From positions 1 to 63,760 of the IMG/VR virus record IMGVR_UViG_3300022700_000225: 63,760 nucleotides of DNA; one strand, written 5' to 3'. Source of the DNA: a virus. Taxonomy: Duplodnaviria; Caudoviricetes. A model generated the notes under the pieces. The model was given only the letters and a program-made list of their open reading frames with translations. It was not told where the DNA came from and did no database searches. Position 1 is the stretch's first letter; the number at the start of each line of letters is the position of its first letter. The position numbers and the translations under genes were made by a program. Below are positions 1 to 56,664 of this stretch, one piece after another.

Positions 1-99
1 CCGACGCGGACGTGATTGCCAGCAAACAGGAGCTGTCGGAGCTCAAAGACATTCTCGGCAACCGCTCTTTGGAGGATCACCGCAAGATGATCGCGGCCA
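1..99. repeat. 99-bp terminal direct repeat, left copy (circular assembly overlap)
   Basis: Identical to 63662-63760; lies inside a CDS that stays in frame across the junction. Confidence 0.97.
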
Positions 100-1436
100 A
101 ACGGAAAAAAATCAACGAGCAGATAGAGCGCATCCCGGTCCGCATTGACGAGGTATCTCAGTCCATGCCGGATATTTCCGAAATCGATTCGGCAATGATC
201 CACCGCAATATCGGGCAGCACAAATTTGACAAGGCCGGGGCGGAAAAGGAAAAGCTTGCCCTGGAGTCCGGCGGTCAGGCGGCCGAGCTGACCAAAAAGC
301 TCCGGGAAATCGAGGCCGAAATCCAGAAAGCGGAAAACGATTTTCAGGCTGAAACAAGCAAAAAGATTCAGGCCGAACAGGAAGATCTGGAATCAGCCCG
401 GCAGCAGATCAAGATTTTTGAAGAGACGATCCGGCTTGCCGAACGAAACATCAAATACAATGGACGCAGCATTGCGGAAAAAGAAGCGGAGATCGAAAAG
501 CTGCGGCAACAGTGGCACGATGAAAACGCCAAGGGATTTGAGGCCGAAGGCACCTGCCCCACCTGCGGGCAGGCCATGCCCGAAGAAATTATCGAGGAAT
601 CCCGCCAGCGGTTTAACCGGCAGAAGGCCGACCGGCTAAGGAATATATCCGAAAAAGGCAAGGCCCTGGCCGGGCAGGCGGAAGAACTCCGAAAGGGCAT
701 TGAGGAATACAAAGAAACAATCGAAAAGGCCCGGGAAGGCATTGACCGCTTCAGGCAAAAGGAAAAGGCGGCAGGGGATAATATTTCCCGTCTTAAAAGC
801 TCCGGCCTTGATCTATGGGACCTGCCAGATCAGAAAACCGACCTGGAAAAACAGATCCAGGCCCTGGCCGACGGCGACAACAAGGCTGCCATCGAGGCGG
901 CAGAGGCCAAAATCAAATATTGCGACGAGCAGATCGAGGCCCTTCAGAAAACCCTGGCCAAACTTGACCAGCACAAATCCGCGCAACAGCGCATCGATGA
1001 ACTCAAGGCAGAGGAAAAGAAACTGGCCGCCAAATTTGAAAAAATCGAGCATGAGCAATACCTCACTGACGAGTTTGTCCGGCAGAAAGTCAATCTGCTT
1101 GAGGAGAAAATCAACTCACACTTTGCCCGGGCCCGGTTCAGGCTGTTTAACCAGCAGATCAACGGGGGTCTTGAGGAAGTGTGCACCACCCTTTATCAGG
1201 GCGTGCCCTACCCTTCCATGAACAACGCGGCCCGGATCAACACCGGCCTGGACATCATCAACACCCTTTCAGAACACTACGGGTTTTCCGCCCCCATCTT
1301 CATTGACAACGCAGAGTCCGTGGTCTCTCTGGCCGAAGCAAAAGCCCAGGCCATCCAGCTTGTGGTGTCGGCGGACCACGATGAATTAACCGTTGAAATC
1401 CAGCAGGAGGAACAATGTCAGAGAAAAGCGTCGTAG
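1..1436 (+). CDS. SMC/Rad50(SbcC)-like ATPase, C-terminal part (gene starts at 63142 and crosses the junction; about 651 aa in total)
   Basis: Long coiled coil with central CPTCG zinc hook and C-terminal Walker B-like IFIDNAES; in frame with the Walker A half at 63142. Confidence 0.9.
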   Translation, partial: DADVIASKQELSELKDILGNRSLEDHRKMIAAKRKKINEQIERIPVRIDEVSQSMPDISEIDSAMIHRNIGQHKFDKAGAEKEKLALESGGQAAELTKKLREIEAEIQKAENDFQAETSKKIQAEQEDLESARQQIKIFEETIRLAERNIKYNGRSIAEKEAEIEKLRQQWHDENAKGFEAEGTCPTCGQAMPEEIIEESRQRFNRQKADRLRNISEKGKALAGQAEELRKGIEEYKETIEKAREGIDRFRQKEKAAGDNISRLKSSGLDLWDLPDQKTDLEKQIQALADGDNKAAIEAAEAKIKYCDEQIEALQKTLAKLDQHKSAQQRIDELKAEEKKLAAKFEKIEHEQYLTDEFVRQKVNLLEEKINSHFARARFRLFNQQINGGLEEVCTTLYQGVPYPSMNNAARINTGLDIINTLSEHYGFSAPIFIDNAESVVSLAEAKAQAIQLVVSADHDELTVEIQQEEQCQRKAS

Positions 1437-2302
1437 AAAGGCCGTCCGACCGGCTCAAGAAAGTAATGCAGGACCCGACTGTAAGCGAACAGTTTAAAAA
1501 TTCCCTGGGCGACAATTCCGGATTGTTTGTTGCCAGCCTGATCGACCTGTACGCCAGCGACAGAAACCTTCAGGAGTGCCAGCCCAAGCAGGTTGTTTTG
1601 GAGGCCCTGAAAGCCGCGACACTCAAACTGCCCATTAACAAGAACCTCGGGTTTGCCTATGTCATCCCCTACAAAGACAAGGGAACGCCGGTCCCGCAAT
1701 TCCAGATCGGATACAGGGGGCTTATTCAGCTTGCAATCCGCAGCGGCCAGTTTCGCCGCATCAACGCTGACAAGGTGTTGGAAGGGGAGTTGAAGCGTTG
1801 CGACAAACTCACCGGCGAAATCGAGTTCGGGGAGCCCGCTGGCGACCGGGTTGCCGGATATTTTGCCTTCATCGAAACCGTCAACGGGTTCAGAAAAACG
1901 GCCTACTGGCGCAAGGAGCAGGTGGAGGCCCATGCCAAACGGTTTTCCAAATCTTACGGCGGCAATTACAGCCCCTGGAAAACCGATTTTGACGCCATGG
2001 CCATCAAAACTGTGCTGAAGCACCTGCTCGGGAAATACGGCATCATGTCCGTTGATATGGTGTCGGCCTTTGACGCTGATCGCGATGATGAGGCCGCGGT
2101 GCAGGACGAAATCGACAAAAATGCCAACAAGGATTTTCTCGACATCGAGCCTGAGGCGGCCGCGGCAGCCCCCGGGGCTGCGGAAGACCCTCCGGCCAAT
2201 GAGGGCGACTCTCCCATGACTAAAGAGGAAAAGGCGGAAATTGAACGCCAGGAGGCGGCAGAAGCGCAGGGCATGACCGGAACAGACGGCCCGGGATTTT
2301 AA
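1415..2302 (+). CDS. recT: RecT-family single-strand annealing recombinase
   Basis: LGFAYVIPY..QFQIGYRGLIQLAIRSG and PWKTDFDAMAIKTVLK motifs; acidic tail; AGGAGG RBS. Confidence 0.93.
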   Translation: MSEKSVVERPSDRLKKVMQDPTVSEQFKNSLGDNSGLFVASLIDLYASDRNLQECQPKQVVLEALKAATLKLPINKNLGFAYVIPYKDKGTPVPQFQIGYRGLIQLAIRSGQFRRINADKVLEGELKRCDKLTGEIEFGEPAGDRVAGYFAFIETVNGFRKTAYWRKEQVEAHAKRFSKSYGGNYSPWKTDFDAMAIKTVLKHLLGKYGIMSVDMVSAFDADRDDEAAVQDEIDKNANKDFLDIEPEAAAAAPGAAEDPPANEGDSPMTKEEKAEIERQEAAEAQGMTGTDGPGF

Positions 2303-2305
2303 ATA

Positions 2306-2343
2306 AGAAATGATGGGGGGCATTTTTTGCCCCCACCATTTCT
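2306..2343 (+). terminator. Stem-loop after recT (terminator or stabilising hairpin)
   Basis: AGAAATGATGGGGGGCA...TGCCCCCACCATTTCT imperfect inverted repeat. Confidence 0.45.
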
Positions 2344-2365
2344 GGCAAAAAAGGAGGCAGCCAAA

Positions 2366-2635
2366 ATGACGCCGGAAGTCTTGAAAAGAGGAAACGAAAT
2401 CATCAGAGAGGTCACCAAATTAAAAGAGCGCCTGGAAAAAATGCGGGTGCAAAAGGACTCTTTAGAGAGAAACCACCTGGAGCCCAAAGTTAACCTTGTG
2501 GTTGGCAACTCTGCATCAATAATCCTTCAGGGAGCGCCCGACGCGGACATGATCAACATGGTTTACATGATGGCCGAAAGCAGAATCAAGGACAGAATCA
2601 ATAACCTTCAGGAAGAATTTGAGGCGCTCAGTTGA
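2366..2635 (+). CDS. Hypothetical coiled-coil phage protein
   Basis: AAGGAGG RBS before ATG 2366; stop overlaps the next start. Confidence 0.75.
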   Translation: MTPEVLKRGNEIIREVTKLKERLEKMRVQKDSLERNHLEPKVNLVVGNSASIILQGAPDADMINMVYMMAESRIKDRINNLQEEFEALS

Positions 2636-3333
2636 ATATCCACACCCTTGCATCCGGATCATCGGGCAACTGCTACCGCATTTCAGACGGGCATACTCCC
2701 CTGTTAATCGAGTGCGGCATCCGGTTTTCCGATATCCGGAAAGGGTGCGGTTTCAAGCTGTCGGAAATCGCCGGGTGCCTTGTGTCGCATGAGCACGGGG
2801 ATCATTCAAAAAGCGCCCGGGAGATCATGCACGCCGGCATCGAGCTTTATGCATCCACTGGCACCATTGAAGCCCTGGGGCTTCAAGGTCACCGGCTGCA
2901 CGTTATTTGCGCCAAAAAGCGCTTTTCAGTCGGCACATGGACAATCCTGCCGTTTGAAACCGAGCACGATGCCGCAGAACCCCTGGGCTTTCTCCTGGCC
3001 AGCACCACAGGCGAAAAACTGCTTTACCTGACCGACAGTTTTTACTGCCGGTACAAATTCAAAGGGATCTCACACGTTATGGTTGAATGCAACTACCACC
3101 TGCCCATCCTGCAGGAAAATATCGAGGCCGGGATTGTCAGCCCCGAGCAGAGAAAGCGAATCTGCCGTTCCCATTTCTCACTGGACAACCTGATCACGTT
3201 TTTGTGCAACAGCGACCTTTCCCGGGTCCGGGAGATCCACCTGCTGCACCTGAGCAACGATAACAGCGACGCGGCCCTTTTCCGGACCGAAGTGGAAAAG
3301 GCGACCGGGAAACCGGTTTATATCGCGGGATAA
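2632..3333 (+). CDS. Metallo-beta-lactamase-fold hydrolase (putative nuclease)
   Basis: ASGSSGNC, SHEHGDH (HxHxDH), HDA, ECNY and LLHLS motifs. Confidence 0.92.
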   Translation: MNIHTLASGSSGNCYRISDGHTPLLIECGIRFSDIRKGCGFKLSEIAGCLVSHEHGDHSKSAREIMHAGIELYASTGTIEALGLQGHRLHVICAKKRFSVGTWTILPFETEHDAAEPLGFLLASTTGEKLLYLTDSFYCRYKFKGISHVMVECNYHLPILQENIEAGIVSPEQRKRICRSHFSLDNLITFLCNSDLSRVREIHLLHLSNDNSDAALFRTEVEKATGKPVYIAG

Positions 3334-3341
3334 GGAAACAA

Positions 3342-3683
3342 ATGCCAAGAAACATGAGTTTTGCCATGACCACGGAACAATATCGAAACCGCTCAAAAAC
3401 GGTGACGCGAAGATTCGGCTGGTGGTTTCTGCAGCCCGGCGACGTTTTTATGGGTGTCGAAAAGGCCATGGGCCTCAAAAAAGGCGAGAAGATAAAAAGG
3501 ATTCACCCCTCCCGCGTTCTATCTGTTCGCCCCGAGCCGCTTAATGCCATTACCCCGGAAGATGTGATCAAGGAAGGCTTCCCGGAAATGACTCCGGAAC
3601 AGTTCGTGGAGATGCTGGTGGCAAAATACAAATGCCGCCCTGATGCAACATGCAACCGGATTGAGTTCGAACATATAGAATAA
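3342..3683 (+). CDS. ASCH-domain protein
   Basis: KTVTRR..W and L.AITPEDVIKEGF...IEF pattern typical of phage ASCH proteins. Confidence 0.75.
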   Translation: MPRNMSFAMTTEQYRNRSKTVTRRFGWWFLQPGDVFMGVEKAMGLKKGEKIKRIHPSRVLSVRPEPLNAITPEDVIKEGFPEMTPEQFVEMLVAKYKCRPDATCNRIEFEHIE

Positions 3684-3692
3684 AGGTCAGCA

Positions 3693-4520
3693 TTGGACGC
3701 AGCACAAAAAATAAACAGGCCAGCTCTCAGATATTACGGCGGAAAATGGAAAATCGCATCATGGGTGATTTCTCATTTTCCGGATCACGTGAATTACGTG
3801 GAGCCGTGCGGAGGCGCAGCATCTATTCTGATTGCGAAGAATCCGGCAAAACTCGAAACGTACAACGATATAGATTGTCGAGTGGTCAATTTTTTTCAAA
3901 TGCTCCGGTCCGAACCGGCAGCATTGATCGAGCAAATTCGGCTCACTCCGTGGAGCCGGGCAGAGTTCTATAGATCGAAAGAAGCGGATATAGATCCAAT
4001 TGAGGATGCCAGGCGTTTTTTCGTCTCGTGCTGGCAATCATTTTCAAAGCATGGCGGTAGCTGGCGGTCAATGTATGATTATTCGGCCCGACCAAGGTCT
4101 GCAACAAAAGATATTAAAGAGATAGACCATCTTTATTTAATCGCCGAGCGTCTAAAGTCTGTACAGTTCGAATGTCGTGACGCCATAGAAGTTGTCCAGA
4201 AATACGATACCGAAAATGGGTTGATATATTTTGACCCGCCATACATCCCCGAAGTCCGGGTCAATAAAAAGTATTACACACACGAAGTTGATGTTCAGTG
4301 GCACATCGATGCATCCAATGTTTTAAAAACAGCGAAGGCGCATGTTGTTGTTTCTGGTTACAGGTCAGGCCTGTACGCTGATCTCTTTGAATCTGCAGGC
4401 TGGATACGTAGAGACATAGCTACGGTTGCGAACGCCGGAGCCAAAAGAACTGAAAGTCTTTGGCTATCGCCATCCATACAGGCGGTAAAAAAAAAGCAAG
4501 AGCAAATGAATTTATTCTAA
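3693..4520 (+). CDS. Dam/D12-class N6-adenine DNA methyltransferase
   Basis: RYYGGK, YVEPCGGAAS, YNDID and catalytic DPPY motifs. Confidence 0.93.
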   Translation: MDAAQKINRPALRYYGGKWKIASWVISHFPDHVNYVEPCGGAASILIAKNPAKLETYNDIDCRVVNFFQMLRSEPAALIEQIRLTPWSRAEFYRSKEADIDPIEDARRFFVSCWQSFSKHGGSWRSMYDYSARPRSATKDIKEIDHLYLIAERLKSVQFECRDAIEVVQKYDTENGLIYFDPPYIPEVRVNKKYYTHEVDVQWHIDASNVLKTAKAHVVVSGYRSGLYADLFESAGWIRRDIATVANAGAKRTESLWLSPSIQAVKKKQEQMNLF

Positions 4521-4581
4521 GCAATCGGCCCACCGGACCTAACGGCCGGTGGCCTCAACCGCTGAAATACCCGGACAATAA

Positions 4582-4881
4582 ATGATCACGGAAGCCGACA
4601 TAAAACGCATAGCTCAAGAAATCAAAGCCTGTACTTCTCAAGGCAAATGGATTCGCGGGCTTCGTACGGCTTCGCAGTATGCAAAAATCAACCGCCAGCG
4701 TCTTGAAAAACTGCTCCGCGCCGGGGAAATCCGGGGCTACATTGACACCGAAACCGGCAAGCCAACCTGGATTCTGGACAGGGAAAGCATTGACGCCTAC
4801 CACAACAAGCGCATTGACGGCGACCAGGCAGAGATTGACAAAAAAGTGGTTGCATTTTTAAAAGGAAGCCGTACAAAATGA
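4582..4881 (+). CDS. xis: Putative excisionase / recombination directionality factor
   Basis: Small winged-HTH-like protein (AGEIRG..WILDRESID), ATGA-coupled to the integrase. Confidence 0.6.
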   Translation: MITEADIKRIAQEIKACTSQGKWIRGLRTASQYAKINRQRLEKLLRAGEIRGYIDTETGKPTWILDRESIDAYHNKRIDGDQAEIDKKVVAFLKGSRTK

Positions 4882-5909
4882 CCGGCATGAATATCAAATG
4901 GATAAACGGGTACGCCTATCTGTGGTTTTCCAGGGCCGAATGGCCGCCCAAAGGCAAGCTGTTATCCATGAAAAAGATCGTCGGCTCCCCGGTCACCACG
5001 CAGGATCAGGCTGAAAAGATTTTAAAGTCGGTCAGCAAAAACAAGCTTGAACAAAAACTCATTGAGCTTGAAGGCGGCAACCGGATATCCATTGAAAGAT
5101 TTGCCGATGAATACGTTGAAGGCGTCCGGTCTGATTTCAGCGACAGTTCACTGCGGATGGACCGGGCCGTACTGCGATACCTTCAAGACGTGACCGGCAA
5201 AACCACGTTGCGCCTGATCAATGACGATGATCTGGTGACATTTAAGAATTATTACCTCTCCCGCATCAGTCCGGAAACGCTGAAAGGTTATTTTCGCCGC
5301 ATCCGGGCTGCCCTGAATTATGCAGCAGAACAGGGCTACATCAAAAAGGTTCCCAAAATCCCATCAGTCAAAGCCCCCAAAAAACAGCCCCGCCCTATCC
5401 CGCTTTCTGACCTTGAAAAAATCCTGAATTATGCTAAGGTCCACAACTTTGAAGTCTGGCGATACGCTCAGTTTTCAGTCTGGACCGGATGCCGCCAGGA
5501 AGAATGTATCCGGTTGCAGTATCAGGATATAACGAAATACGATGAGCCGACCCCAGCAGGCGTGGCCGGGGTCTGCCGGATCACTGGCAAGGGCAACAAA
5601 GAACGCACCGCTTACCTGTTGCCCCCAGCAATGGAGGCCATCGGTGAAATCAAGGATATCGGCCCGGTGTTCAGGCAATGGACCGGGACGACCGTCAGCC
5701 ATTATTTCAAGCGGTGCGTCCGTAAAGCCGGGTTTGAGACTCCCCGGTTCCACGACCTGCGTCACACGGCCGCCACGCGCATGGTGACAGCCGGCATACC
5801 GCTGCCAATTGTGCAAAAGATCCTGGGGCATACAGACATCCGGACAACCCAAATTTACGCCGACATTATTGATAAAGTGGTTGAAACCGAGATGGGCAAA
5901 ATGTTATGA
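4878..5909 (+). CDS. int: Tyrosine recombinase, phage integrase
   Basis: Catalytic set TGCR, GKGNKER, HDLRH, LGH..IRTTQIY; adjacent to attP. Confidence 0.96.
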   Translation: MTGMNIKWINGYAYLWFSRAEWPPKGKLLSMKKIVGSPVTTQDQAEKILKSVSKNKLEQKLIELEGGNRISIERFADEYVEGVRSDFSDSSLRMDRAVLRYLQDVTGKTTLRLINDDDLVTFKNYYLSRISPETLKGYFRRIRAALNYAAEQGYIKKVPKIPSVKAPKKQPRPIPLSDLEKILNYAKVHNFEVWRYAQFSVWTGCRQEECIRLQYQDITKYDEPTPAGVAGVCRITGKGNKERTAYLLPPAMEAIGEIKDIGPVFRQWTGTTVSHYFKRCVRKAGFETPRFHDLRHTAATRMVTAGIPLPIVQKILGHTDIRTTQIYADIIDKVVETEMGKML

Positions 5910-5969
5910 CCCCATCTAAAAAATGCCGAAAAAACGCTGAAACGCCCCGTAAAATGGAGGCCGCCTATA

Positions 5970-6017
5970 GCACTCGTAATGCGCAGGCCAGCGGTTCGAC
6001 TCCGCTCGTCGGCTCCA
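5970..6017 (+). mobile_element. attP core: 3' half of tRNA-Thr(CGT)
   Basis: GCA-CTCGTAA-TGC anticodon arm (CGT), T-arm AGCGG-TTCGACT-CCGCT, acceptor end GTCGGCT-CCA; no D-arm or 5' acceptor strand upstream. Confidence 0.9.
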
Positions 6018-6025
6018 TGAATTTT

Positions 6026-6064
6026 AAGGGATTTCGAGATCTTGTCAAGAATCCCTTTTTTATT
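6026..6064 (+). terminator. Intrinsic terminator downstream of the tRNA fragment
   Basis: AAGGGATT...AATCCCTT stem followed by a T-run. Confidence 0.7.
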
Positions 6065-6324
6065 GCGCTGCCGAAAATTGTATCAAATTGAGCCAAATTG
6101 GACACCTTTTGCCGAAAAAGTGTCGAAAAAATTTTTCGGCAGCATGGCCTGAAATACACCCAGCACTTTCTTTTTTCAACCTCAAAACATACCAGCAATT
6201 TGTTAGCAGAAAGAATTGCCCTGAACAACAGTGCCCGGGCATGATTTGCCATTCAAATGGTTATGTGGTAAAAGGATTACGGATTTATTGCTGTCCACTA
6301 CAACCATAGGCCCGTTTCTCGATC

Positions 6325-6771
6325 ATGCTGGTCCGTTATCAAACAGAAGAGAACAGGAGGCTGGCCGAAAAGGTTTTCATGCTTCGGCTGTCAGGCCTTA
6401 CCTATCAAGAAATCGCCAGCAGAACAGGGCTGACCCTCCAGAACGCAAGGCAAATGGAACACAGGGAACGCGCTTTCAGGTGTGAAGCTTTTAAATACCC
6501 TCTCCTTGAATACATCCCCACGCGAACAGAAAAAACCATCCGGAAAGGCTTGGGAGAAACCATTTTGGCAAATCCGGAAAAACTAAGCGAAATCGAGAAC
6601 CTCAAGACGTTGATTTGCTTACCTGGGGTGAGCGACGTGGTTATGAAGAATCTTGCCGATGGGCTTGCCGAGGCCGGGTATGAATCGTTTGATGTGGAAA
6701 AAATAAAGGATGCCATTTTTACCACCAAACGGAAGGCACAGAGCATGCGCCGGGAGAGGTTTGGGGTGTGA
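6325..6771 (+). CDS. DNA-binding protein: sigma70 region-4-like HTH plus RNAP alpha-CTD-like domain
   Basis: GLTYQEIASRTGLTLQNARQME (sigma4-like); IPTRTEKTIRKG...LICLPGVSDVVMKNLADGLAEAG (alphaCTD-like). Confidence 0.55.
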   Translation: MLVRYQTEENRRLAEKVFMLRLSGLTYQEIASRTGLTLQNARQMEHRERAFRCEAFKYPLLEYIPTRTEKTIRKGLGETILANPEKLSEIENLKTLICLPGVSDVVMKNLADGLAEAGYESFDVEKIKDAIFTTKRKAQSMRRERFGV

Positions 6772-6915
6772 AAAGTGAAAAGTTGCAGGATATCACAATA
6801 AATATTGAAAAAAGAATGGTAACTGATCGAAATGAAAATAAAAATTTGAGCTTTGTTTTCCTGGGATATCAAGCGAGATTTGCAGTCTAACTAATGGATA
6901 TGTGCTCTTGGTGAA

Positions 6916-7326
6916 ATGAAAATCGAGCTCCTACAATGGATATACATTGCAATTGTCGCGCCATTGTTTGGTGCAGTCGGGGCTTGGATCTTCGGTATCA
7001 TCCGAGCTCGGCGATCCAGAAAACAGATCGTTGAATACCTCTCGGGCCTTCCAGGCGAATCTAAAGCAGTATTGGTCGAGTTCATTGCTGCCGATAAACA
7101 TACAATGCGAGGCGACCCACTTAACCCACCAGTTCGGGTTCTCCTTGCGCATGGAGTTCTTTCCAGAGGACCCGGCGGCGGAACACATGATGCAGTCGAT
7201 TCCTACTTGTCGGTTTCATCTAAATCCTGGGCAGTCCGGGACAATTGGCTACTTGCTGACCCAGAAGCAATGCAACTACACAATGAATATATGGGTGTGA
7301 ATCAAGATGAACCGCCCCGCACATAA
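6916..7326 (+). CDS. Superinfection exclusion protein B (SieB)-like membrane protein, gene-cassette ORF
   Basis: N-terminal TM helix and basic patch, then LSGLPGESKAVLVEF...NPPVRVLLAHGVL winged-helix pattern resembling SieB; stop abuts attC. Confidence 0.6.
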   Translation: MKIELLQWIYIAIVAPLFGAVGAWIFGIIRARRSRKQIVEYLSGLPGESKAVLVEFIAADKHTMRGDPLNPPVRVLLAHGVLSRGPGGGTHDAVDSYLSVSSKSWAVRDNWLLADPEAMQLHNEYMGVNQDEPPRT

Positions 7327-7418
7327 CGAACAAAAGCTTCAACCCGACGCCGGGTAACTTCCGGGCCGGCAAGGCCGGATTAGGTATGGGGTGGCGCGGG
7401 TTAAGCTAAACGTTAGGC
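7325..7418 (+). mobile_element. Integron attC recombination site
   Basis: R'' AAC ... L'' AGCTT(C)AACCCG(A)CGCC pairs with GGCGCGGGTTAAGCT ... R' GTTAGGC; two extrahelical bases (G and T on the bottom strand) and an unpaired central spacer. Confidence 0.85.
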
Positions 7419-7438
7419 AGTAACCAGAGGATATTACA

Positions 7439-10400
7439 TTGGAAGACTATTCTATTTTTCTAAAAGCTTTGAATTTTAATAAATCAACCTCTAATAGATG
7501 GGTGAGAAGATTCGTCTATCCCTCATCAGGGGAGTATGTCATTACCATTGATACCGCCAAACGGACTATTGATTATCCCAAGCCCATTATTTTAGGTGAT
7601 CGCACCACCAGCAACTTTGACCACCCGGAAAATTTTGTGGTGCTGGAGTGCGTATGCCGTTTGCTTGCAAAAGGCTACGATCCCGCCACTCTCATTCTGG
7701 AAAAGCGATATCAGGTTGGTCGTGGAGCATCAGGCGGCAAGAGTGACATTACCGTGTTAAGACGCACAACCGACCCCAACGATCAAAAAAACGCTTCGCC
7801 CTTGCTGATTATTGAATGTAAGACCTTTGGCGCTGAGCACGACAAGGAAATACAGAAAACTATAGAGGACGGCGGGCAACTTTTCGGCTATCTTGCCAAC
7901 GACCACAGCGCTACTCATCTCTGCGTCTATTCCTCTAAGCTGAATAACGAATGCATTGAATATCGCTCTGATATCATTCATGTGGAGGATACTCCTGAAG
8001 CTAAAGAAAAATTTGCCAAAAAAGAAAAGACCGATGGCTACACTGCCGCCCGCCAAGCCATACCGTTATTCGAGCACGCCCACAACCGAGAAACTTTGCA
8101 CCATGCCTGGAAAACCACTTACGACGGAACATTTCAGTCCAGCGGAATTTTTGAAGAGGAGTTTACTCCCTACGCCATTGGCTACATTCCTTGGCGGGGC
8201 AAAGACCTCAAAGAATTCAACGGACAAAACGGCAGCATTAGGGTTTTCAACAGTTTCATGGAAATTCTGCGCCACAATAATGTATCAGACAAGGAAAACG
8301 CCTTTAACCGCTTATGCGCTATTATTCTTGCCAAATTAATTGATGAAGATCGTGAACCCGCCGCTATCCTCGATTTTCAATGGTTCCCCAACAAAGACAC
8401 CGCTGAAGATTTGATTGATCGTTTGCAACGCCTTTACAAGCGCGGCATGAAAGAAACTCTGGGCGAGGAAATCACTTACTTTGAAGAGCGTGATATTGAT
8501 CAAGCATTTATCGTCCATCGGCGAGACATAGCACGCAATGAGGTTAAAAAAATCTTTCGCGCCCTTAAATTTTACACCAACAACGATTTTGCATTTAAGG
8601 AAGTCCACAACAAAAAACTGTTTGAACAAAACACCCAGGTGGTGCGCGAGATAGTGGAGTTATTTCAGGGCTATCGCATGAAATATACCAGCAAACAGGC
8701 TTTTTTAGGCAATCTTTTTGAGCTTCTACTAAACAGCGGTTTCAAACAGTCGGAAGGGCAATTTTTTACTCCTATTCCCATCGCCCGGTTTATTGTGCGC
8801 TGTCTGCCGTTGCGTGAACGCATGGCAAATGCCATTAAAGCAGGAACTCCCCACATCCTTCCAAAGATAACAGATTATGCCTGTGGCAGCGCCCATTTTC
8901 TTACCGAAATCATTGAAGAAATCCAAGAAGACCTCGACGTGCTGAAACGACCGGAGGCCAAAAATACCACTTGGGCGAGAGATCATGTATGGGGTATTGA
9001 AAAGGACTACCGTCTTGCCCGCACAGCCAAGATCGCCCTTTTTCTCCACGGCGCGGGCGATGCCAACATCCTCCACGATGACGGGCTGGACCATGCAAAC
9101 TCCATCCTGCCCAAACCGGGTACGGTGGATGTGTTGGTGGCGAATCCGCCCTATTCGGTCAAGGACTTCAAACAACACCTGCGCCTACAAAACAACCAGT
9201 TCACTCTGCTGCCACATCTGACCGCTAATTCAAGTGAGATTGAAATTTTGTTTGTAGAACGTTCCGCACAGCTTTTGGCGGTGGGTGGCATGGCCGGAAT
9301 CATCCTGCCCTCCTCCATTCTGAGCAACAGCGGTATCTATCAGCGTACCCGCGCCCTGTTACTTGAAAAATTCTTACTGCGCGGCATTGTCGAGTTGGGC
9401 GGTTCCGCATTTATCGCCACCGGAACTAACACCATCATCCTATTCATAGAGCGTCGTCCAGACTTCCATCGCGACCATTTCAGCATTCGGGCAGATGCCC
9501 TGTTTGACGAGGAGAAAAAACCCAAAGATGCTGATTATGCCGACAGCGACTTGCTGCGGGCCTACTGCGTAGCCGCCGGTCTTGACTTTACCGACTATTG
9601 CCAATGGTTGGCGGACCCACACGGTGAATTGCCGAAAGAATTGGAACAAACCCCCCTTTTTGCAGCTTATCAGCGCGAATTTGACGGCCTGGCCAGCACA
9701 AAAAGGCGCAAAGCGCAAGTAACGTTCAAAAAACTTCCGCATAATGATCAAAAAGCCGAACTGAGGGGAAAATTCCTCCGCCACTGCCGCGAAACCGAGC
9801 GAAATAAATTTTTCTATTTTGTCCTGGCGCATGTTGAAACATTCGAAAAAGGCGAAATAATTCCGCAACGCACCACCATACTGCGTGGCACGGGAAGTAA
9901 AACCGAAGAGCAAACCTTTCTCGGTTACAAATGGAGTCAGCGCCGCGGCTCCGAGGGGATGGTAAATTTGCGTGAACCTTACGACGGCGGACTACTCTAC
10001 ACGCCGGGCAGCGGTAGCCGGATTGAACCACCCACTAAGGCCGCCTACTATTTCCGCCATGCCTTTTTGGGGACGAAAGCGGATGGATTACCGGATGATT
10101 CTCCCCTTAATGGCAAGCTGCGCATCACTTCAACCTCCAGTTGTTTCGACTTCAGTCGCACCGCTTGCGACCTAGCCGTCAATCTATCGCCAGTCGAGGA
10201 AAATACCGCACCGGTGTTTGATACGCAGTATCCCTTGGTAGCGATAGGGACGATTACGGAAATACGCAACGGCGGCACACCTTCATCTAAAATTGCGGAT
10301 TATTGGGACGGTAATATTCCTTGGGCAACACTTGTTGATGTAAAACAAAAAGAAGTACATTCAACCGCTCGTACAATCTCTCAGTCAGGGCTGGAAAAGA

Positions 10401-10780
10401 GCAACGCACAATTATTACCAAAAAATACTGTTCTTCTGTCCAGCCGCGCAACCATTGGCGAAGTAGCTATAGCCCGTATTGAGTTGGCAACGAATCAAGG
10501 CTTCAAAAACTTTATCTGCAATGAGCATAAAATATTGCCGGAATACTTATATGAGGTTTTGGTTTGGCAAAAAGAAAATATTAAAAAACTTGCAGGCGGT
10601 ATGACTTATGGTGAAATCAGCAAAGGTAAAATTGCCAATTTCCTTATTCCTCTGCCTCCATTAGAAGTGCAACGAAAAATCGTACAGGCCATTGAAACTT
10701 TAGAAAAGAAGGCTGAAACCTATGTTATTAAGGATTTGGAAGAACAAAAGCGACAAATCCTGCTCGACGGCATCAGATGA
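7439..10780 (+). CDS. Fused restriction-modification enzyme (Type IIG / Type I-like: nuclease + N6-MTase + TRD)
   Basis: SDI...IIECK PD-(D/E)xK motif; GQFFTP, DYACGSAHF and NPPY MTase motifs; C-terminal HsdS-like TRD (GGTPS...SSRATIG..TNQGF..IPLPPLEVQRKIV). Confidence 0.92.
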   Translation: MEDYSIFLKALNFNKSTSNRWVRRFVYPSSGEYVITIDTAKRTIDYPKPIILGDRTTSNFDHPENFVVLECVCRLLAKGYDPATLILEKRYQVGRGASGGKSDITVLRRTTDPNDQKNASPLLIIECKTFGAEHDKEIQKTIEDGGQLFGYLANDHSATHLCVYSSKLNNECIEYRSDIIHVEDTPEAKEKFAKKEKTDGYTAARQAIPLFEHAHNRETLHHAWKTTYDGTFQSSGIFEEEFTPYAIGYIPWRGKDLKEFNGQNGSIRVFNSFMEILRHNNVSDKENAFNRLCAIILAKLIDEDREPAAILDFQWFPNKDTAEDLIDRLQRLYKRGMKETLGEEITYFEERDIDQAFIVHRRDIARNEVKKIFRALKFYTNNDFAFKEVHNKKLFEQNTQVVREIVELFQGYRMKYTSKQAFLGNLFELLLNSGFKQSEGQFFTPIPIARFIVRCLPLRERMANAIKAGTPHILPKITDYACGSAHFLTEIIEEIQEDLDVLKRPEAKNTTWARDHVWGIEKDYRLARTAKIALFLHGAGDANILHDDGLDHANSILPKPGTVDVLVANPPYSVKDFKQHLRLQNNQFTLLPHLTANSSEIEILFVERSAQLLAVGGMAGIILPSSILSNSGIYQRTRALLLEKFLLRGIVELGGSAFIATGTNTIILFIERRPDFHRDHFSIRADALFDEEKKPKDADYADSDLLRAYCVAAGLDFTDYCQWLADPHGELPKELEQTPLFAAYQREFDGLASTKRRKAQVTFKKLPHNDQKAELRGKFLRHCRETERNKFFYFVLAHVETFEKGEIIPQRTTILRGTGSKTEEQTFLGYKWSQRRGSEGMVNLREPYDGGLLYTPGSGSRIEPPTKAAYYFRHAFLGTKADGLPDDSPLNGKLRITSTSSCFDFSRTACDLAVNLSPVEENTAPVFDTQYPLVAIGTITEIRNGGTPSSKIADYWDGNIPWATLVDVKQKEVHSTARTISQSGLEKSNAQLLPKNTVLLSSRATIGEVAIARIELATNQGFKNFICNEHKILPEYLYEVLVWQKENIKKLAGGMTYGEISKGKIANFLIPLPPLEVQRKIVQAIETLEKKAETYVIKDLEEQKRQILLDGIR

Positions 10781-10888
10781 AAAACAGAATGTTCAAAGAA
10801 TCACACAACGGAACGTGAAAACTGCAGTTTCCATATAATCAAACTCATTTCATACATTTTTATTCCTTTGGTCAAAGCTGTCTAAATT

Positions 10889-11404
10889 TCACTCCCACGA
10901 TTTGGACCCGACAAACCGCCGGTCCCAATAATCCCCGTCAAAAAGCCTTAAATCCACCGGCCCGGTTGAACTGCCAGACTGCCACACCTCCGGCTGCCTC
11001 GCGTGCATGCCGATATGGCCGTAGGGCCGTTGTTCCTGCAATGTCCACCAGATCCAGTCCCCGCATGCCCCCTCTTTCCAGTGCTTTTCACGGCCTGCGG
11101 CCAGGATGAAATACCGGGCGCTGGTGGTCCTGGGCACGGGCCGGCCGATTTTCTTTTGCACATGATAAACCGCCCCTGAGCAATCAAACCCGCCTTCTTT
11201 AAAAGACTCGCCGCCCCACACATACGGCATGCCCTCCATGCTTTCCCACACAGACACGATTGCCGCACAATCAACCTTTTTCCCGGCGTCAGGAATATGG
11301 TCGTCAGCTGGCGACCCGGCTGATGATAATGGCCAGTCCAAGCAGGAAGGCAGACACAACAAGGCTGCCGCCAGTAAACACATTGCCGGAAAACGCTTTT
11401 TCAA
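10889..11404 (-). CDS. NlpC/P60 peptidoglycan endopeptidase with predicted lipoprotein signal (candidate endolysin)
   Basis: PYVWGG, FDCSG and GHIG motifs; LLAAALLCLPSC lipobox-like N-terminus; end of the lysis cassette; start uncertain. Confidence 0.85.
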   Translation of the reverse strand: MKKRFPAMCLLAAALLCLPSCLDWPLSSAGSPADDHIPDAGKKVDCAAIVSVWESMEGMPYVWGGESFKEGGFDCSGAVYHVQKKIGRPVPRTTSARYFILAAGREKHWKEGACGDWIWWTLQEQRPYGHIGMHARQPEVWQSGSSTGPVDLRLFDGDYWDRRFVGSKSWE

Positions 11405-11513
11405 AATCCCACCCCGGAGTCAAGCGGTCAAAAAGTTTAAAGCCGATCAAAAACAGCGCCACGCCCATCACCCCGCCGGCCAGACATGTCATTAAATAAG
11501 ATCCCACATTCAT
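11304..11513 (-). CDS. DUF350-like two-TM membrane protein (holin/antiholin candidate)
   Basis: FKLFDRLTPGWDF...GN...LGLAIII pattern; ATGA overlap with the o-spanin stop. Confidence 0.65.
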   Translation of the reverse strand: MNVGSYLMTCLAGGVMGVALFLIGFKLFDRLTPGWDFEKAFSGNVFTGGSLVVSAFLLGLAIIISRVAS

Positions 11514-11800
11514 TTGCCCATTTCCTCCTTCCATTCCCGAAGCGCCTGCTTGTCGGACCGGTGCAGGCGGTTGATTTCCCACAAGTCAAGAGCCCAGTCC
11601 CGCAGGTTCCCGTTCTTGTCTCCCTCCAGTGCCGGGGCTTCATACGCCTGCAGGTATTGCTCCGGCGGCAGGACATAGACGTATTCAGTCCTGACAATGG
11701 GCTGTGGCATCCCGCAGGCGGTCATAGACAGCATCAGGCATGCGGGCATCAGCCCACTCGCTGATTTCCTGATTCTCTTTTTCCAGCCTTGCCATTTCAT
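11510..11800 (-). CDS. o-spanin (Rz1/LysC-like lipoprotein)
   Basis: Lipobox MTAC followed by a Pro-rich segment; overlaps the 3' end of the i-spanin; start may be 11749. Confidence 0.8.
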   Translation of the reverse strand: MKWQGWKKRIRKSASGLMPACLMLSMTACGMPQPIVRTEYVYVLPPEQYLQAYEAPALEGDKNGNLRDWALDLWEINRLHRSDKQALREWKEEMGK

Positions 11801-12053
11801 TTTTCAGTTCCTTTGCTTCTTTCCGGATCTCAACCGCCCTGGCCTTTTCCCGGGCGGCTGCCGCCTCGGCCGCCTCGCGCTGCCGGGCAAGATCCTTGAT
11901 CCGCTTCTCCCGGTCCTGGATTTCGGCCTGCTGCTGGACAATCGTGGCGGCCTGTTTCGCCTTTTCCTCGATCAGCGCCCGGTTCTGCCAGAACAGAAAG
12001 CCGGCTGCGGCCAGAAGTGCCGCAATGATTCCGATCTTGATTTTAGTCATCAT
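11685..12053 (-). CDS. i-spanin (Rz/LysB-like)
   Basis: N-terminal TM, coiled coil, C-terminal WADARMPDAV motif. Confidence 0.85.
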   Translation of the reverse strand: MMTKIKIGIIAALLAAAGFLFWQNRALIEEKAKQAATIVQQQAEIQDREKRIKDLARQREAAEAAAAREKARAVEIRKEAKELKNEMARLEKENQEISEWADARMPDAVYDRLRDATAHCQD

Positions 12054-12437: not shown

Positions 12438-15400
12438 CTACATCCCTGCCCGCTGCCTCAGCCTTTGCGCATACGGCCGCAGATATTCCGGCGGCTGCCG
12501 GCCCTGCATCCGGGTGGCAATCGAGTGTTTCAGGTCAATGATATATTCAAACCGGCCCCGTTCTGCCTGTTCCCGGTTCCAGTCCGCGACTTCTTTGGCA
12601 ATTTTGCGCACCTCCTTGAAATCGCCCTCATGCACGGCCTTTGCCATGCGGTCGGCAAAATTGCGCTGCTTTCTGACCTTGTAGGCCCGAAGATCCCCGA
12701 TCTTCTGAGTCATTTCCCATGACTTCTGATTTTCCACAGGCTGAAACCCGAAGGCTTTGGCTATCGCCTGGGGTGCAGTAATCCGCCTCGGTTCCACTTC
12801 TCCGGGCAGCACAATGGGCCGGCCCGTATGCGTGTAAAGCCCTTCGGAATAGGCCCGGTGGGCGCGAATCGGGTTGGCGATCACCGGCGGCAAAATGCTT
12901 TCAAGCGCCCGCAGCGGGTCCCGGTTGTATGCCGCGGTCATGGTGCGCTCAATATCGACCAGCATGGAGTAAGGAATGCCGATTGCTTCGGCAAAAAGCC
13001 GGGCGCCCTGCCCGGTGGGCGACTGATCCACCCGGTATCTTGACAAAATGGGCAGCTCCATGCTCATGGAAGATCCCAGGGTGGTGCCGCCGACAGTGGG
13101 CAAACCGTATAAGGCCATGTCCCGCACCCAGTCCATGTCCTCATCATCGGGCAGCAGCTTGTCCACGGTCTTTTCCTCCCAGTCATCGCCTGTGAGCTGC
13201 CGCATCATCGCCATGAAGGTTTTATACAAGGGGAAGGACGTCAGGCCGCCGAACGCCACCACAGCCGCGAGCGAGCGCATAAGCGCCCTCTGGCCGGAGC
13301 CGCCCTGCTTCCACTGCCATTTCCACAAAGACAGCAGGTTGTGGGTGAAAAACCGGAATGTGTAACCGGTGCCGGCCACGTACCGGACAATCGGAGACTT
13401 GTCGGCCCGGACCAGCTCGGGCCGGTTGTGCCGGCCAAAGTCAAAGTTGGTGTCTGTGTTGATCTCGCTGGCAAAGGCCATTGCCTCATCGTATGAAAGC
13501 GCTTCGCCGGCCTTTTTGTTAAACTTCTTCAAGGTCTTCGGGTTGGTGATCTTGCCTTCCCGGGCAATGTTAAAGGCGGCCAGCCCCACGGTGGTCCGGT
13601 TGAACCGTTCCGATATGGCCATGGGAATGCCCAGCAGCTTGACAAACCGGTCCCAGCCGGAAGCTACCGGGTCCCTTGCAATCTGGCCGGAGACTTCTTC
13701 TGTAAACTGGGCGCCGGACAACCCCTTTTCATAAAAGTCATGCAAAAACCGCCGCTGCTCCATGGTCAGGGTCTTTTTGCCGTTTAGCGCGTCTGTCAGC
13801 ATCTTGCCGGTGGTGCCCAGATAGCGGGAATTGGCCCGCTTTGTTTCCATGGACAGCCGGGACGTGCCGGCCACAATCACCTGAGTGAGGTTCAGCACCG
13901 GGGTTTTAATCGATGCTCCCAGGTACTTGGCAAAAAACAGGGACTTCATCCAGGCAATACGCTTGTCGTGCTGATCTGAATTGCGCAGCATGTCAGACAC
14001 ATAGTTTTTGGACGCCTTGTAGAGCTCCGGGTCTTTTTTTGCATCCAGGGTGGCCAGTATTTTGGAATAATCCCGGCTGGCCTCCATCTTGGTCATCCAC
14101 CCGTTGCTGCCGGTCAGATACCGGTAGAGCACCTTCTGGATGTCCCGTTTTTCATGGCCCGGGATGTCGTGCTGGCGGATGGTGTGCGCCCCGAATCCCC
14201 GCATCTTCAGCACGTCTGCCACCTTTTCGGGCAAAATCTGCTCAAATGCGTGGGCAAGATCCGGACCGGCCTGCTGGGCCGCGGTTTTCAGGATCTGTGA
14301 AATGGCATCTGTGGGAATCGGGGTGTCATAGATGGACTCCTCGGGCAGGTTTTCGTTTCTGCCCACCTTGACTTTCATGTTTTTGAACTCGGGGTATCTG
14401 GCAAAGATTTTTTCCAGCTCCTTTGCCGCTGCCCTGCGCTGGCTCAAATTGAGCCTGGCATCAAAATGGGACCGGAACACCACCTCGCCTTCCTGATCCC
14501 GGATCTGGATATAGTGATTGCCGTAGCGCACATGCGGAAAATAGTTTTTCTTGTACCGGGCATCCTTTCTGAATTGATCAATCTGGTTGCGGTCCACTTC
14601 CGATGAGCGGGCCAGCAGGGCGTCAATCTGGGTCCATTTGTTGTCCAGCACCCGGCGGACCTGCACCACTTCTTTGGCAACCTCTTTGGAAACGCCCAGA
14701 TTTTTTACGATCCAGTTTTCCAGCGCCGGATACGCCTCTTCATTGACCTGCAGGCCCTTTTCCGCATCCACTATAAGGCTGTCTGGCACGCCCTTGATGT
14801 CCTGGCCGTCAATGGTCCAGATCACGTCCCGCACCGCCTCCAGGTTTTCGCCCCGCAGCTTCCAGAAGGAATCCAGGGTCACAACGTCTTTGGTGTTTAG
14901 ATCGTTTCGGGTTTCAATGCGCTTTTTGGTGCGGTCATAGAGCTTGCCGAAGGCTTCCGGATAATACTTTGCCATCCATTGCGGCAGCATGAGGGCCCGC
15001 TGCGTGACCCGCATTTTCTTTTCGTCCTTGCCGAAAGTGACATTGGGCGGCAGGTCTCCGGTGCGCAGGAAGTGGGCAAATTCTCTGTCAGGATTTTTGG
15101 GCTGGTATTGTTCGTCACCCCAGGCGGCCCGGCGGATTTGCGCGCCGGAATGTCTTGTCTTTTTGACCGGAGCGCCGTAATCGGAAGCCTTGAGGCCGGG
15201 CGGGAGGTCGCCGGCGCGGGCAAAGCGGGCGCCTTCTGATCCTGCCGGAGGGGTTGTCCCGTCGGGAAGGGAGGTTAAGTCTCGATTTTTGGCCGTGTCG
15301 GTTTTTTCAGAGGGCTGCCGGGAGGCTACTTGCTCTTGAACAGATCCTTGAACTTGCCCCGCGCCTGGTTCGATACCTGCCTGCCGTGCTGCCGCAAGGA

Positions 15401-18400
15401 TTCGATCTCGGAGGTCGTCAAGCGAAGGCTGTCTTGCAATGTAGTGGGCTTCTTTTTGGGTGAGGGCTTCGAGCTTTCCGGCGATGTTGTGTTCCCGGAG
15501 GAATTTTTCTGTTTGCTGTCTGCCATGTTTATCCTCGATCTTCTTGATGATTTGCGTATCTGGCTTGATTTTACTGCCGTATATGCCGGATGTCAATGCG
15601 GAAACAGCCGCCACCTCTCCGCCGTTGTTTTCGATGAAGTGGCGCAGTTCAGACATAGTGCCGCCCTGCCCCAGGGCGTCGTCTATAAGAATGTACTTGC
15701 GTCCGGCCTGGACCTTGCCGTCAAATTCGGGGCGGGCAACAAGCCGGAGCGGGGAGTCTTTTTCTGTGCGGGCTGCCCGGTTGGACTGAACGATGTCAGT
15801 GTTTACCTCGAATCCGGCATCCCTGTAAGCCTCCGCAAGAACACGCGGAATGGCATTTTTTCCGGCCGCCTCTTCGGCATGAGGGGCCACCACAACCGCA
15901 TCCGGATACTGTTTTTTCAGGTTCAAAATCTTTTCCGGCTTGACCAGATCCCGGACAAGGCTGATTGCAGCCCTGGCGTCTCCGGCCTTGGCCTTCTTGT
16001 ATTCCGGATGCCCTGTCAACTTGCTCATGGAGGTGTGCAGCGTGGCATTTGCAAAATCCTTGGGCCAGGACTTAACTGACGTGCGGGCAAAGCGGGTGTC
16101 GGGGCTGGCCGGGTCAAACGTGCCCTGGTTTCCTGTGGCGGATTTGATTTGTTCGGGCTCAAAGGCAACATAGACCCCCGCATGTTGCGCCTCAAAATCT
16201 TTGACTCCATCAAAGTCTGTTACAAGCCCGCCCACGCGCTCATCGTATAAGTCCACATAGGCAGAATCAAACTCATTGGTTCGGAGGCTGCGGTTTTTGT
16301 CTATCTTTACCTGGCCTGTTTTTTTGAGCGTCTCTTTTTGTTTGGCAGTAAGCCGGGTCGGCTCTTCGTGAACATACCCGTCAAAGCCGCTTTCTTTTAA
16401 CCGGGCAGTGATTTCCCGGGTCGTATATTCTTTACCTTCTTTTGATAATTGATTTATGGCTTTAGCAACATCTTTCTTGCTGGCAGGATTTTTAATGGAA
16501 AGATAAAATGCCCGGGTTTCACTGTCGGGCGCATTGGGCCGGCCCCATGGTCGCCGCCCGTGCATATCTGCATCTTCCCGATTCCCGGAGAACCAAAAGC
16601 CCATTACTGGGGCATCAGGATCATGGGAATTTATTTTGCTCTTATCAAATTCAGAGAATCCCGGCGTCGGGCTCCCATGATAGACGACCAAGGGCCCGCC
16701 GTTTTCATCCACCACCTTGGAGGCCTGATCATGCTCTGCCTTGACTTTTCCCAGCCATTGCTTTAATTTTTTATCCATAGGGCCGGATTGAGCATTGATC
16801 CCCGGCGCCCTAATGCCGGCAAGATGATGCTCCGATTCGGCCCTTGTTATTTCCACGCTGGAAACAAAAGCATTGTGCAGCTCGTTTCCTTCCGGCTTGC
16901 TGGCCTCTCTGACGGTAAAGCGGACCCAGTAATCTCCCGTATCCGGATCATTGACCTTTGACAGATAATTGTGATGGGCAATGATGTTGTTGTGTTTTGC
17001 CGGATCTCGTTCGCTTTCCGAATAAATGGGCTCTGCTTTTTCGAGCAGGGGCTTAAACTGCGGTATGATTCTCAGCATCAAGTCCCGCTGACGATGGCCG
17101 AGGATCTTTTTAAAAGCATTGGTTACAAAAAGAATCCTTCTGCCGTCCCGCTGATTGACCGCACTGCCGGCTGCTTTGTATGCCTTGCGCGCAGATTGCT
17201 TGTCCACTGCTGCCGGTTCAATGGACATGGCCGGCATTTCAATCACCCGTCTGTATTGCTCCGCCGATTCCCAATCGCCGAACCATTTCTTGAAATATTT
17301 GGACTGCACGCCCTTTTCGGCCCATTCCCTCCGGGCCTCCGCCCGCTGTGCAGCCTCCGCCCCGGCCTCATCGGATCTGGCAAACCGCACCCCGGCCTGA
17401 TCGTCATAATAAACGGTTGTCAGCACCTCTTCGGGGTTCTGGCCCATTTTCATCAGGCCTTCCCTTTTGAGCATCGCCTCCAGGGTCTTCCATGGTGGCT
17501 CCGCCTTGCGCTTTTCCGGCGACAGCTCCAGGCGCTTTTGGGTCAGCCGGGCCTCGGCCTCGCCGGCCAGGGTAAGGTAGGCATAGCCCCGGGCCACGTA
17601 ATCGGCTTCGCGCTTCAGCTTCACAGCTTCCGCATTGACCTTTGATCGTTGATCCCGGTCCTTGATCTCCATGGCGGTGCGGACTTTGCTATTGGCTTTC
17701 CGGTACAGCTGTTCCGCCCTCGGCACGCCCCGGGCCGGTTCCACGGATGACATGCTGCCGCCCCTGGCAAAGCCCTCCCGCCGCTGAACCGCGTGCTGGA
17801 GTTCGTGCAAAAGGTGGCTTTTCAGTTTCGATGCCGGCACCTGGGAGCCAACCAAAATGCTCTGGTTGTCATGGCTGTATCCGGCCCCGGCTTCGTTGAC
17901 GGGGTGGACCCCGACGCGGATATCCATTAAAGACGGATATGCTTTAAAAAGCGCCGGCGCCTCGATCAATTCATTGAGTTTGAAATATCCCTTTTCCCCG
18001 GCCACCTGCTCTATCACGGCCTGGAAAGGCATGCCCTTCTGGTTGATCCGCCGGTTTAGCCGGACCTGTCCGCTGTCGATTTCAAAGCTCCACTGGCCGG
18101 GCACGATCTCCCACCAGCCGGTTGTCTTCCAAATCTTCTCCCGGCTTGCCGTGCCTTTTTCCTTTGCCAGCTTGGCTTTTTCCAGCATGCCGGTATCTGC
18201 GGTCGCGGCCTTTTTGCCAAGGAACAGAAAACGGGGATCTGCCTTTAAGCCCTGGCCCACAAAGCCGGTTTCGCCCTTTTCAATCACTTGATCCGCCCGG
18301 GAAATGACCATGCGCAGATCCGCCCGGGTCAGCCCTGTGTTGGGAAACAGCTTTCGCACCCATGCGGCAACCCTGGAAACAAACCGGTCAAGCAGGGTCC

Positions 18401-56650: not shown

Positions 56651-56664
56651 TCAAAAAAATCATA

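Follow-up and report, generated by a model that had tools for sequence, protein, structure and literature searches.

A lone SieB-type gene cassette with its attC site in a complete temperate phage, just upstream of a Type IIG restriction-modification gene

How does an integron recombination site come to lie between two defence-type genes of a phage? We addressed this question in IMG/VR record IMGVR_UViG_3300022700_000225, a whole virus record of 63,760 nt that is referred to below as the window. CheckV gives a completeness of 100%, an exact 99-nt direct terminal repeat closes the record, and it represents a complete temperate tailed phage. Between the genes for a SieB-like protein and a Type IIG restriction-modification (RM) enzyme we found an element that is, with high confidence, a true attC site, and the open reading frame (ORF) preceding it belongs with it to a true gene cassette. 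It is probable, taking the whole statement together, that this is a lone cassette of the type known as single attC sites lacking integron-integrase (SALINs), and that it was inserted by the integron integrase (IntI) of a host. The features that carry this reading are the following:

6916-7326, plus strand: ORF of the SieB-like protein, 136 aa, with the stop codon TAA at 7324-7326
7321/7325-7418, plus strand: attC site, of which the recombinogenic bottom strand is the minus strand
7321-7327, plus strand: R'' box read as ACATAAC, overlapping the TAA stop; or, at canonical spacing, AACGAAC at 7325-7331
7337-7351, plus strand: L'' box, CTT-C-AACCCG-A-CGCC
Between L'' and L': variable centre of 41 nt
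7393-7405, plus strand: L' box, GGCG-CGGGTT-AAG
7412-7418, plus strand: R' box, GTTAGGC
Spacers: 5 nt on the 5' side and 6 nt on the 3' side, the register starting at 7325 being the canonical one
7439-10780, plus strand: Type IIG RM enzyme, 1113 aa, with a TTG start

The 94-nt element at 7325-7418 begins within the stop codon of the SieB-like ORF and ends 20 nt before the TTG start of the RM gene. C7340 and A7347 are unpaired on the plus strand, so that a G and a T are extrahelical on the bottom strand, and a 6-bp stem lies between them. The R' box is a perfect fit to GTTRRRY, and an AAC triplet is available in two registers. When each strand was folded on its own, the attC shape was recovered for both the plus strand (−21.7 kcal/mol, z −3.0) and the minus strand (−19.0 kcal/mol, z −2.8); per strand, one in 200 shuffled sequences reached an equally good fold. 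An earlier sequence-only reading of this DNA had described a 94-bp attC with AAC/GTT cores, an unpaired spacer and two extrahelical bases, which starts at the stop of the SieB-like gene and ends 20 nt before the RM start. All of these elements can be read in the sequence, the folds agree with them, and the coordinates proved correct.

A hairpin of this appearance could also be a terminator or a regulatory stem that resembles attC by chance, in which case the SieB-like gene would simply be a phage moron of the usual kind. The site lies between two genes, where hairpins are common in phages. In a simple pattern scan the site obtained the top score of 16, with look-alikes elsewhere in the window at a score of 12, which means that the pattern scan alone is not specific. 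On the other hand, no T-run follows the attC stem. A promoter and terminator scan of 6000-11500 detected no terminator-like site at attC, the counts being equal to those of shuffles, and an Rfam scan gave no match at the site.

To score the site as a structured element we used two covariance models, R1 and R2, which were purpose-built here, contain no window sequence and are distinct from the curated model of IntegronFinder. R1 was built from four short seed attC sites, and R2 from the 13 best R1 matches in four loci that carry relatives of the SieB-like gene (L004, L008, L011 and L012). With filters off and the whole window searched, R2 matched 7325-7418 over its full length (26.6 bits, E 1.9e-5). 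Three matches in total had E<=10; the other two were 4516-4567 (26.8 bits, E 1.6e-5) and a 12-bit match (E 1.3). As a control, we searched 82 other, unrelated phage loci (273 kb), in which R2 found no match at E<=10, and the search of these loci combined with the window (336,983 nt) returned only the same three. A chance hairpin gains some credit from the modest score of the site and from 4516-4567, which scores equally without having AAC/GTT triplets, but the empty 273 kb of control phage DNA argue against it. The covariance check that had been proposed by the sequence-only reading thus came out in favour of the site, on our own model and with clean phage controls.

The base changes in the site follow the same structure. 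Two double changes in the L box relative to the consensus are compensatory (AAGCCG/CGGCTT to AACCCG/CGGGTT, and GTT/AAC to CTT/AAG). Among 32 aligned model matches, both-sided changes were observed in 18 of 21 pairs. Pairing was found in 90.6% of the cells in this alignment, compared to 68.8% in shuffles (none of 500 reached the observed value) and 28-42% in slid controls, the alignment being fitted to the model and hence biased towards structure. In the core triplets, the two A-U pairs were present in 32 and 31 of the 32 sites and the C-G pair in 31, and the site at 7325-7418 conforms to all three.

The second attC-like hairpin, 4516-4567 on the plus strand, starts at the stop codon of the Dam-type methyltransferase gene and ends 14 nt before a Xis-like ORF upstream of the phage integrase. 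The C and A bulges occur where they are expected in an attC. Where the other sites have AAC/GTT core triplets, it has AGC/GCT; both sides of the pair have changed together, which makes it the sole exception among the 32 aligned sites. This hairpin could be a decayed attC, a mimic of an attachment site or a chance structure. Four loci with distant Dam homologs (39-41% identity) contained no attC.

We then turned to the relatives of the SieB-like gene. Its relatives are few: four proteins reached E<=0.001 among 38 candidates. Scans with an alignment of these proteins gave 14 loci, namely ten metagenomic ones (L004-L013) and four genomic ones, from a Rhodocyclaceae metagenome-assembled genome (MAG; L014), a Verrucomicrobia MAG (L015), Aromatoleum evansii KB740 (L016) and a Phycisphaerae MAG (L017); L005 duplicates L004 across their shared part. 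Canonical attC sites were seen in the flanks, ending a few nucleotides before the start codon and beginning at or just after the stop codon. An R2 match directly adjoined the homolog, on either side, in 11 of the 14 loci. It was located directly upstream in nine (L004, L005, L007, L008, L009, L011, L012, L014 and L016) and directly downstream in eight (L004, L008, L010, L011, L012, L014, L015 and L016). Six of the 11 positive loci lie outside the training set of R2 (L007, L009, L010, L014, L015 and L016). Where a downstream match was missing (six loci), the contig stops before the stop codon or less than 50 nt past it in four cases (L005, L007, L009 and L013). No adjoining match was obtained at L013 and L017, and L006 gave weak ones only (14.2 and 12.7 bits).

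The Rhodocyclaceae locus L014 is a complete integron. Its IntI (TIGR02249, 489.8 bits; cut-off 265) is encoded at L014:7769-8710 on the minus strand, divergent from the array, and attC matches were found at 9063, 9917, 10409, 11362 and 11900, with the SieB-like homolog (9995-10414) as the third cassette. Furthermore, an IntI above the cut-off was present in three of the four genomes with a homolog. GenBank phages, PLSDB plasmids and IMG/VR were searched with the SieB-like protein without a match; cassette arrays and the present phage are the only places where the subfamily was encountered. Homologs of this gene are therefore carried as cassettes, in one case within a complete integron, which clearly contradicts the refuting condition set by the sequence-only reading, that they never are. 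The gene-cassette geometry that had been read from the sequence was borne out: the gene before attC is a cassette gene. An attC at the same position in eight of 14 homolog loci, including the complete integron, is difficult to reconcile with a chance hairpin, as is the attC of L004, which aligns with the site box by box. Because of this homolog context the chance explanation is largely refuted, and we regard it as very unlikely.

Two further loci deserve mention. In A. evansii KB740 (L016:10001-10384), the SieB-like cassette gene is broken by an in-frame stop after 23 codons and has an attC on both sides; the IntI of this strain is located on a separate contig. The 1.9-kb metagenomic contig L012 (L012:1-1903) is a dense array with five attC sites on one strand. 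Some of these nearly match one in L011, a different contig.

The homologs also allowed us to define where the cassette begins and ends:

6898-7412, plus strand: gene cassette, 515 bp, consisting of a short 5' leader, the SieB-like ORF and the part of attC that ends with the crossover G
6897-6903, plus strand: left junction, G6897↓ATATGT (the arrow marks the point of joining), where G↓TTATGT, the reverse complement of R'' ACATAAC, would be expected
6885-6891, plus strand: GTCTAAC, a core motif of the R'' type (RYYYAAC) within the AT-rich flank on the left, 5 nt before the junction

The nearest cassette is that of L004, whose protein is 69% identical to the 136-aa ORF. In a pairwise alignment, nucleotide similarity begins at G↓TTATGC in L004 and at G↓ATATGT in the window, and extends from there over leader, ORF and attC. 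Upstream of the left junction no similarity to L004 was found; L004 has a preceding attC at this place and the window AT-rich sequence. The 5' end of a cassette that can circularise is expected to complement its own R'' box. In L004 the first bases complement R'' GCATAAC perfectly, and in the window GATATGT complements R'' ACATAAC in six of seven positions, the single mismatch being in the triplet. Compared to L004, the window cassette differs by this one substitution in the left triplet and by four extra nucleotides in the spacer between R'' and L''. The point at which the similarity to L004 starts, together with the complementarity of junction and R'', shows that 6898-7412 is one whole cassette; a left boundary that complements R'' is also not what a chance hairpin would provide.

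On the right, the cassette is bounded by G7412↓TT, which fits the GWT consensus. The flank beyond it opens with TTAGGC; its positions 6-8, counted from the cleavage point, are C-A-G and correspond to three of the four positions of the CRGM motif. On the left, GTCTAAC is a 6/7 inverted match to the R' box GTTAGGC of the right flank. Since RYYYAAC occurs just 43 times on the plus strand of the window (about 0.67 per kb), a copy so near the junction is unlikely to be there by chance. Judging from its sequence and position, GTCTAAC may be half of an attI-like target or the remnant of an earlier attC. Short repeats at the junction (an 11-nt repeat, a 9-nt repeat and GGATATCA, which occurs twice) were considered as well and judged to be chance.

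What does the cassette encode? A SieB match at E<=0.01 was obtained for 14 of 16 family members, with a best E of 2.4e-7. The AlphaFold2 (AF2) model of the 136-aa protein (predicted local distance difference test, pLDDT, 88; predicted template modelling score, pTM, 0.71) has a predicted N-terminal membrane helix at residues 2-43, with a hydrophobic first half, followed by a helix/strand domain of the winged-helix type. In a search against viral folds the sole match below E 0.001 was the 195-aa phage P22 protein Q38660 (E 3.4e-5, template modelling score 0.54), which we take to be SieB. A protein language-model atlas placed the protein with SieB-named clusters (0.96). The PDB fold search returned weak matches to winged-helix proteins of the MarR type (best E 5.5e-3), and a sequence profile search of the PDB with the 136-aa protein gave nothing. 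Compared to SieB of P22 and lambda (PF14163), the protein shares a weak sequence match, the P22 protein as best viral fold and a location in a prophage accessory region, whereas it is shorter, at 136 aa, and scores under the Pfam gathering threshold. These results suggest a SieB-related, membrane-anchored protein of the superinfection-exclusion type, and from its family membership a role in exclusion or abortive infection would be predicted.

The gene downstream of attC encodes nuclease, N6-methylase and specificity functions in one polypeptide. PADLOC assigned residues 8-1104 to REase_MTase_IIG (793 bits), and the Pfam domains are N6_Mtase, Eco57I and Methylase_S. Both neighbours of the attC thus belong to defence-type families, as had been stated from the sequence. 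The ribosome-binding site and the TTG start of the RM gene are located 9-20 nt past attC. As these start signals follow attC directly and leave no room for a promoter, the RM gene would be read through the cassette, in one operon; co-transcription of the two genes is what this arrangement predicts. The promoter scan of 6000-11500 found no promoter-like site upstream of the cassette.

The window is a metagenome-derived viral contig, which raises the question of whether the assembler joined an integron cassette into phage sequence. Such an artefact would need two breakpoints exactly at the cassette boundaries, within a contig that is closed by its terminal repeat, and the RM start signals stand directly past attC. 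We find it scarcely credible.

How, then, did the cassette reach this place? The source would be a circular cassette from a bacterial integron, encoding a SieB-family protein. The integrase of a host integron would have inserted it at a secondary, non-integron site in the leader of the phage Type IIG RM gene. This target would have resembled attG or attI (G↓TT), with an inverted core-like motif on the left. In the resulting lysogen, both genes may protect the cell in two ways, by exclusion or abortive infection and by restriction. The phage itself has no IntI, as had been noted before: TIGR02249 matched the phage integrase with 42.9 bits against the cut-off of 265, over model positions 240-303 only. 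Neither in front of the cassette nor past the RM gene did R2 detect an attC. Without an IntI and without a second canonical attC in the window, the locus is neither an integron nor a group of clustered attC sites that has no integron-integrase (CALIN), and the missing IntI together with the missing attC after the RM gene indicates a lone cassette of the SALIN type. The clean left boundary favours insertion of one cassette by IntI over capture of an array fragment. For this particular route, in which a host IntI places a single circular cassette at a secondary site within the leader of the RM gene, we would put the likelihood slightly above even.

The sequence-only reading had instead proposed that the phage captured part of a host cassette array. 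In that case a stretch of array would have been taken up by illegitimate recombination or aberrant excision, the SieB-like and RM genes would have been neighbouring cassettes, and the flanking attC sites would have been lost later. Several features would fit: TTAGGC is how a cassette canonically begins, and the RM gene starts 20 nt past attC; an attC with a deleted hairpin could have left GTCTAAC, 5 nt from the junction, as its R'' stump; and the G+C content (GC) of the cassette (0.51) and of the RM gene (0.47) are both below that of the structural region (0.56), with flanks at 0.31. Temperate Vibrio phages with captured integron segments have been published, and RM systems are known in cassettes (PMC9892861). 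Other observations speak against a captured array. One cassette is demonstrable, flanked by no attC before it or after the RM gene, and left of the junction no foreign cassette sequence is visible. At 3.3 kb the RM gene is much bigger than usual cassettes, which are typically far smaller. Two of two loci examined with RM homologs, all of those found being distant ones (36-41% identity), contained no attC according to R2; homologs this distant are uninformative on whether the RM gene is a cassette. attP was not located, and the proposed position next to it is thus unsupported. The interpretation given with the sequence-only reading is therefore supported in part. We consider array capture rather unlikely, but it is the main rival to insertion of one cassette and has a better claim than a chance hairpin or an artefact.

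A lone cassette put in place by a host IntI does not account equally well for everything, and the following points weigh against it, or against a functional site and a SieB assignment. The left triplet is GAT and not GTT; under the published scheme the variable W of GWT comes to lie in the right junction, and the A would therefore require a later substitution. TTAGGC is a perfect match to the cassette-start consensus and the RM start lies at a cassette-like distance, both of which an array fragment would explain too. No relative of the phage with an empty site was found. With the narrow model R1, just the L box was recovered (14.7 bits, E 0.2), and the 26.6 bits obtained with R2 are modest compared to the attC sites of arrays (30-84 bits). 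The R'' box is poor: ACATAAC fits three of the four RYYY positions and AACGAAC two, and AACGAAC, the reading at canonical spacing, pairs with R' in just four of seven positions. With this box and the four extra spacer nucleotides relative to L004, the present activity of the attC is uncertain. Finally, the 136-aa ORF reached 23.6 bits with Pfam SieB (PF14163), below the gathering score of 26, and had no match in PHROGs or PADLOC.

The swappable defence slot that had been proposed would be plausible as a mechanism; no related phage that covers the locus was found for comparison. A more far-reaching possibility is that the locus is a working exchange point, at which a host IntI inserts and removes defence cassettes at the lone attC and the GAT junction in the prophage, with the hairpin at 4516-4567 possibly acting as an attP that mimics attC. 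We see this as a long shot. If the exchange point were real, the phage would shuttle cassettes between integron-bearing hosts, and if 4516-4567 were an attC-mimicking attP, the phage would integrate into cassette arrays. The latter idea echoes a Vibrio prophage flanked by attC repeats (PMC9892861).

Insertion of single cassettes outside integrons has been described by Loot et al. (10.1101/2022.09.11.507474), who defined SALINs and counted 3400 of them in 2469 bacterial genomes. According to the same work, inserted cassettes are expressed if they land near a promoter, excision is sometimes seen, the core consensus of attG is GWT, and the CRGM motif is important in hotspots. The present cassette resembles those in having a single coding sequence plus attC, no IntI, attI or other attC nearby, a G↓TT right junction, and a position just upstream of a resident gene, where it can be expressed. 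It differs in its carrier, a complete phage here and a bacterial chromosome there, and in its left junction (GAT, not GTT). In the accessible part of that paper, phages appear only in the comparison with lambda integrase.

Integron parts in phages have been reported as well. Qi 2023 (PMC9892861) screened 10,705 phage genomes and recorded integrons, In0 elements and CALINs among 21 positives; of six phage attC sites that were assayed, five underwent recombination with attI1 by IntI1. Inverted GTTRRRY motifs were found at the boundaries of the elements, and methyltransferases among the cassettes; a 2026 review restates the finding of integron parts in phages. Our locus is similar in its phage-borne attC and cassette, its inverted boundary motifs of the GTTRRRY type and the methyltransferase gene beside attC, but the cargo in that study consisted mostly of genes of unknown function or methyltransferases. 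As two or more attC sites within 3 kb were a precondition of that screen, a lone cassette such as the present one would have been filtered out.

Integron cassettes are often anti-phage, many with membrane helices, as described by Darracq (10.1101/2024.07.02.601686) and Kieffer (10.1101/2024.07.02.601719), and some homologs outside integrons keep their attC, among them a Brc24 homolog that was read as an attG insertion. Like the present cassette, these are small anti-phage genes, often for membrane proteins, and some of the systems occur preferentially in prophages. In contrast, the words 'SieB' and 'superinfection' have no occurrence in either paper, and no attC-bearing cassette within a phage genome is described in their accessible parts. 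Our literature search turned up no earlier description of a SieB-type cassette standing alone in a phage, although supplementary tables may list a similar case. Integron parts in phages, SALINs with attG sites, and defence cassettes are thus already published; what is new here is an unusually clean, isolated defence-type cassette in a complete temperate phage.

The locus is natural evidence, at the level of sequence, that a complete temperate phage genome has received from bacterial integrons a cassette with cargo of the anti-phage type. The boundaries of the cassette are intact, and its position is expected to give expression together with the restriction system. It joins three themes of recent work, namely cassettes inserting outside integrons, integron parts in phages, and integrons as stores of defence genes, and it suggests that screens demanding at least two attC sites overlook lone cassettes in phages. 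A new mechanism is not revealed by it.

In the phage genome, the cassette and the RM gene are housed in a lower-GC stretch between the integrase block and the tail genes. The order in this stretch is a 148-aa sigma-70-region-4-like protein, a 126-nt AT-rich spacer (GC 0.31), the 136-aa ORF, attC and the RM gene; the overall GC of the window is 0.54. The other features of the genome are:

3693-4520, plus strand: Dam-type methyltransferase
4582-4881, plus strand: Xis-like helix-turn-helix (HTH) protein, a weak match
4878-5909, plus strand: tyrosine integrase
Plus strand, in one block with the Dam-type methyltransferase, the Xis-like HTH protein and the integrase: SbcC-like protein, RecT and a metallo-hydrolase
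Minus strand: terminase, portal, capsid and tail genes
59062-59877: CI-like HTH/S24 repressor

We also looked for relatives of this phage. Searches of IMG/VR gave no close relative for the SieB-like protein, the 148-aa HTH protein, the RM enzyme, the integrase or the Dam-type methyltransferase, and the window DNA at 6300-7700 had no match in GenBank phages. Five contigs with a 90-91% identical terminase were found, none of which covers window positions 1-12000. Among 301 genomes of the order of G001, the best terminase homolog had an identity of only 55%.

A second low-GC island is located at 55000-59000 of the window (GC 0.38-0.40 vs 0.54 overall), next to the CI-like repressor. It encodes a protein with HTH and Peptidase_M78 domains (IrrE-like) at 55505-56560 and a HATPase_c protein at 57183-57986, and is possibly another accessory or defence module. 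On the minus strand, 12438-28181 is occupied by a single ORF of 5247 aa, of the 'large polyvalent protein' type, with N6-methylase/Eco57I, SNF2/ResIII helicase, Helicase_C, LPD23, LPD3 and ART-PolyVal (ADP-ribosyltransferase) domains; it is probably a counter-defence protein that is delivered with the virion. Finally, the Rfam motif DUF3800-VIII RNA was detected at 61151-61217 on the plus strand (45.4 bits; gathering score 40.2), just after an ORF of the Phage_gp49_66 family at 60737-61144.

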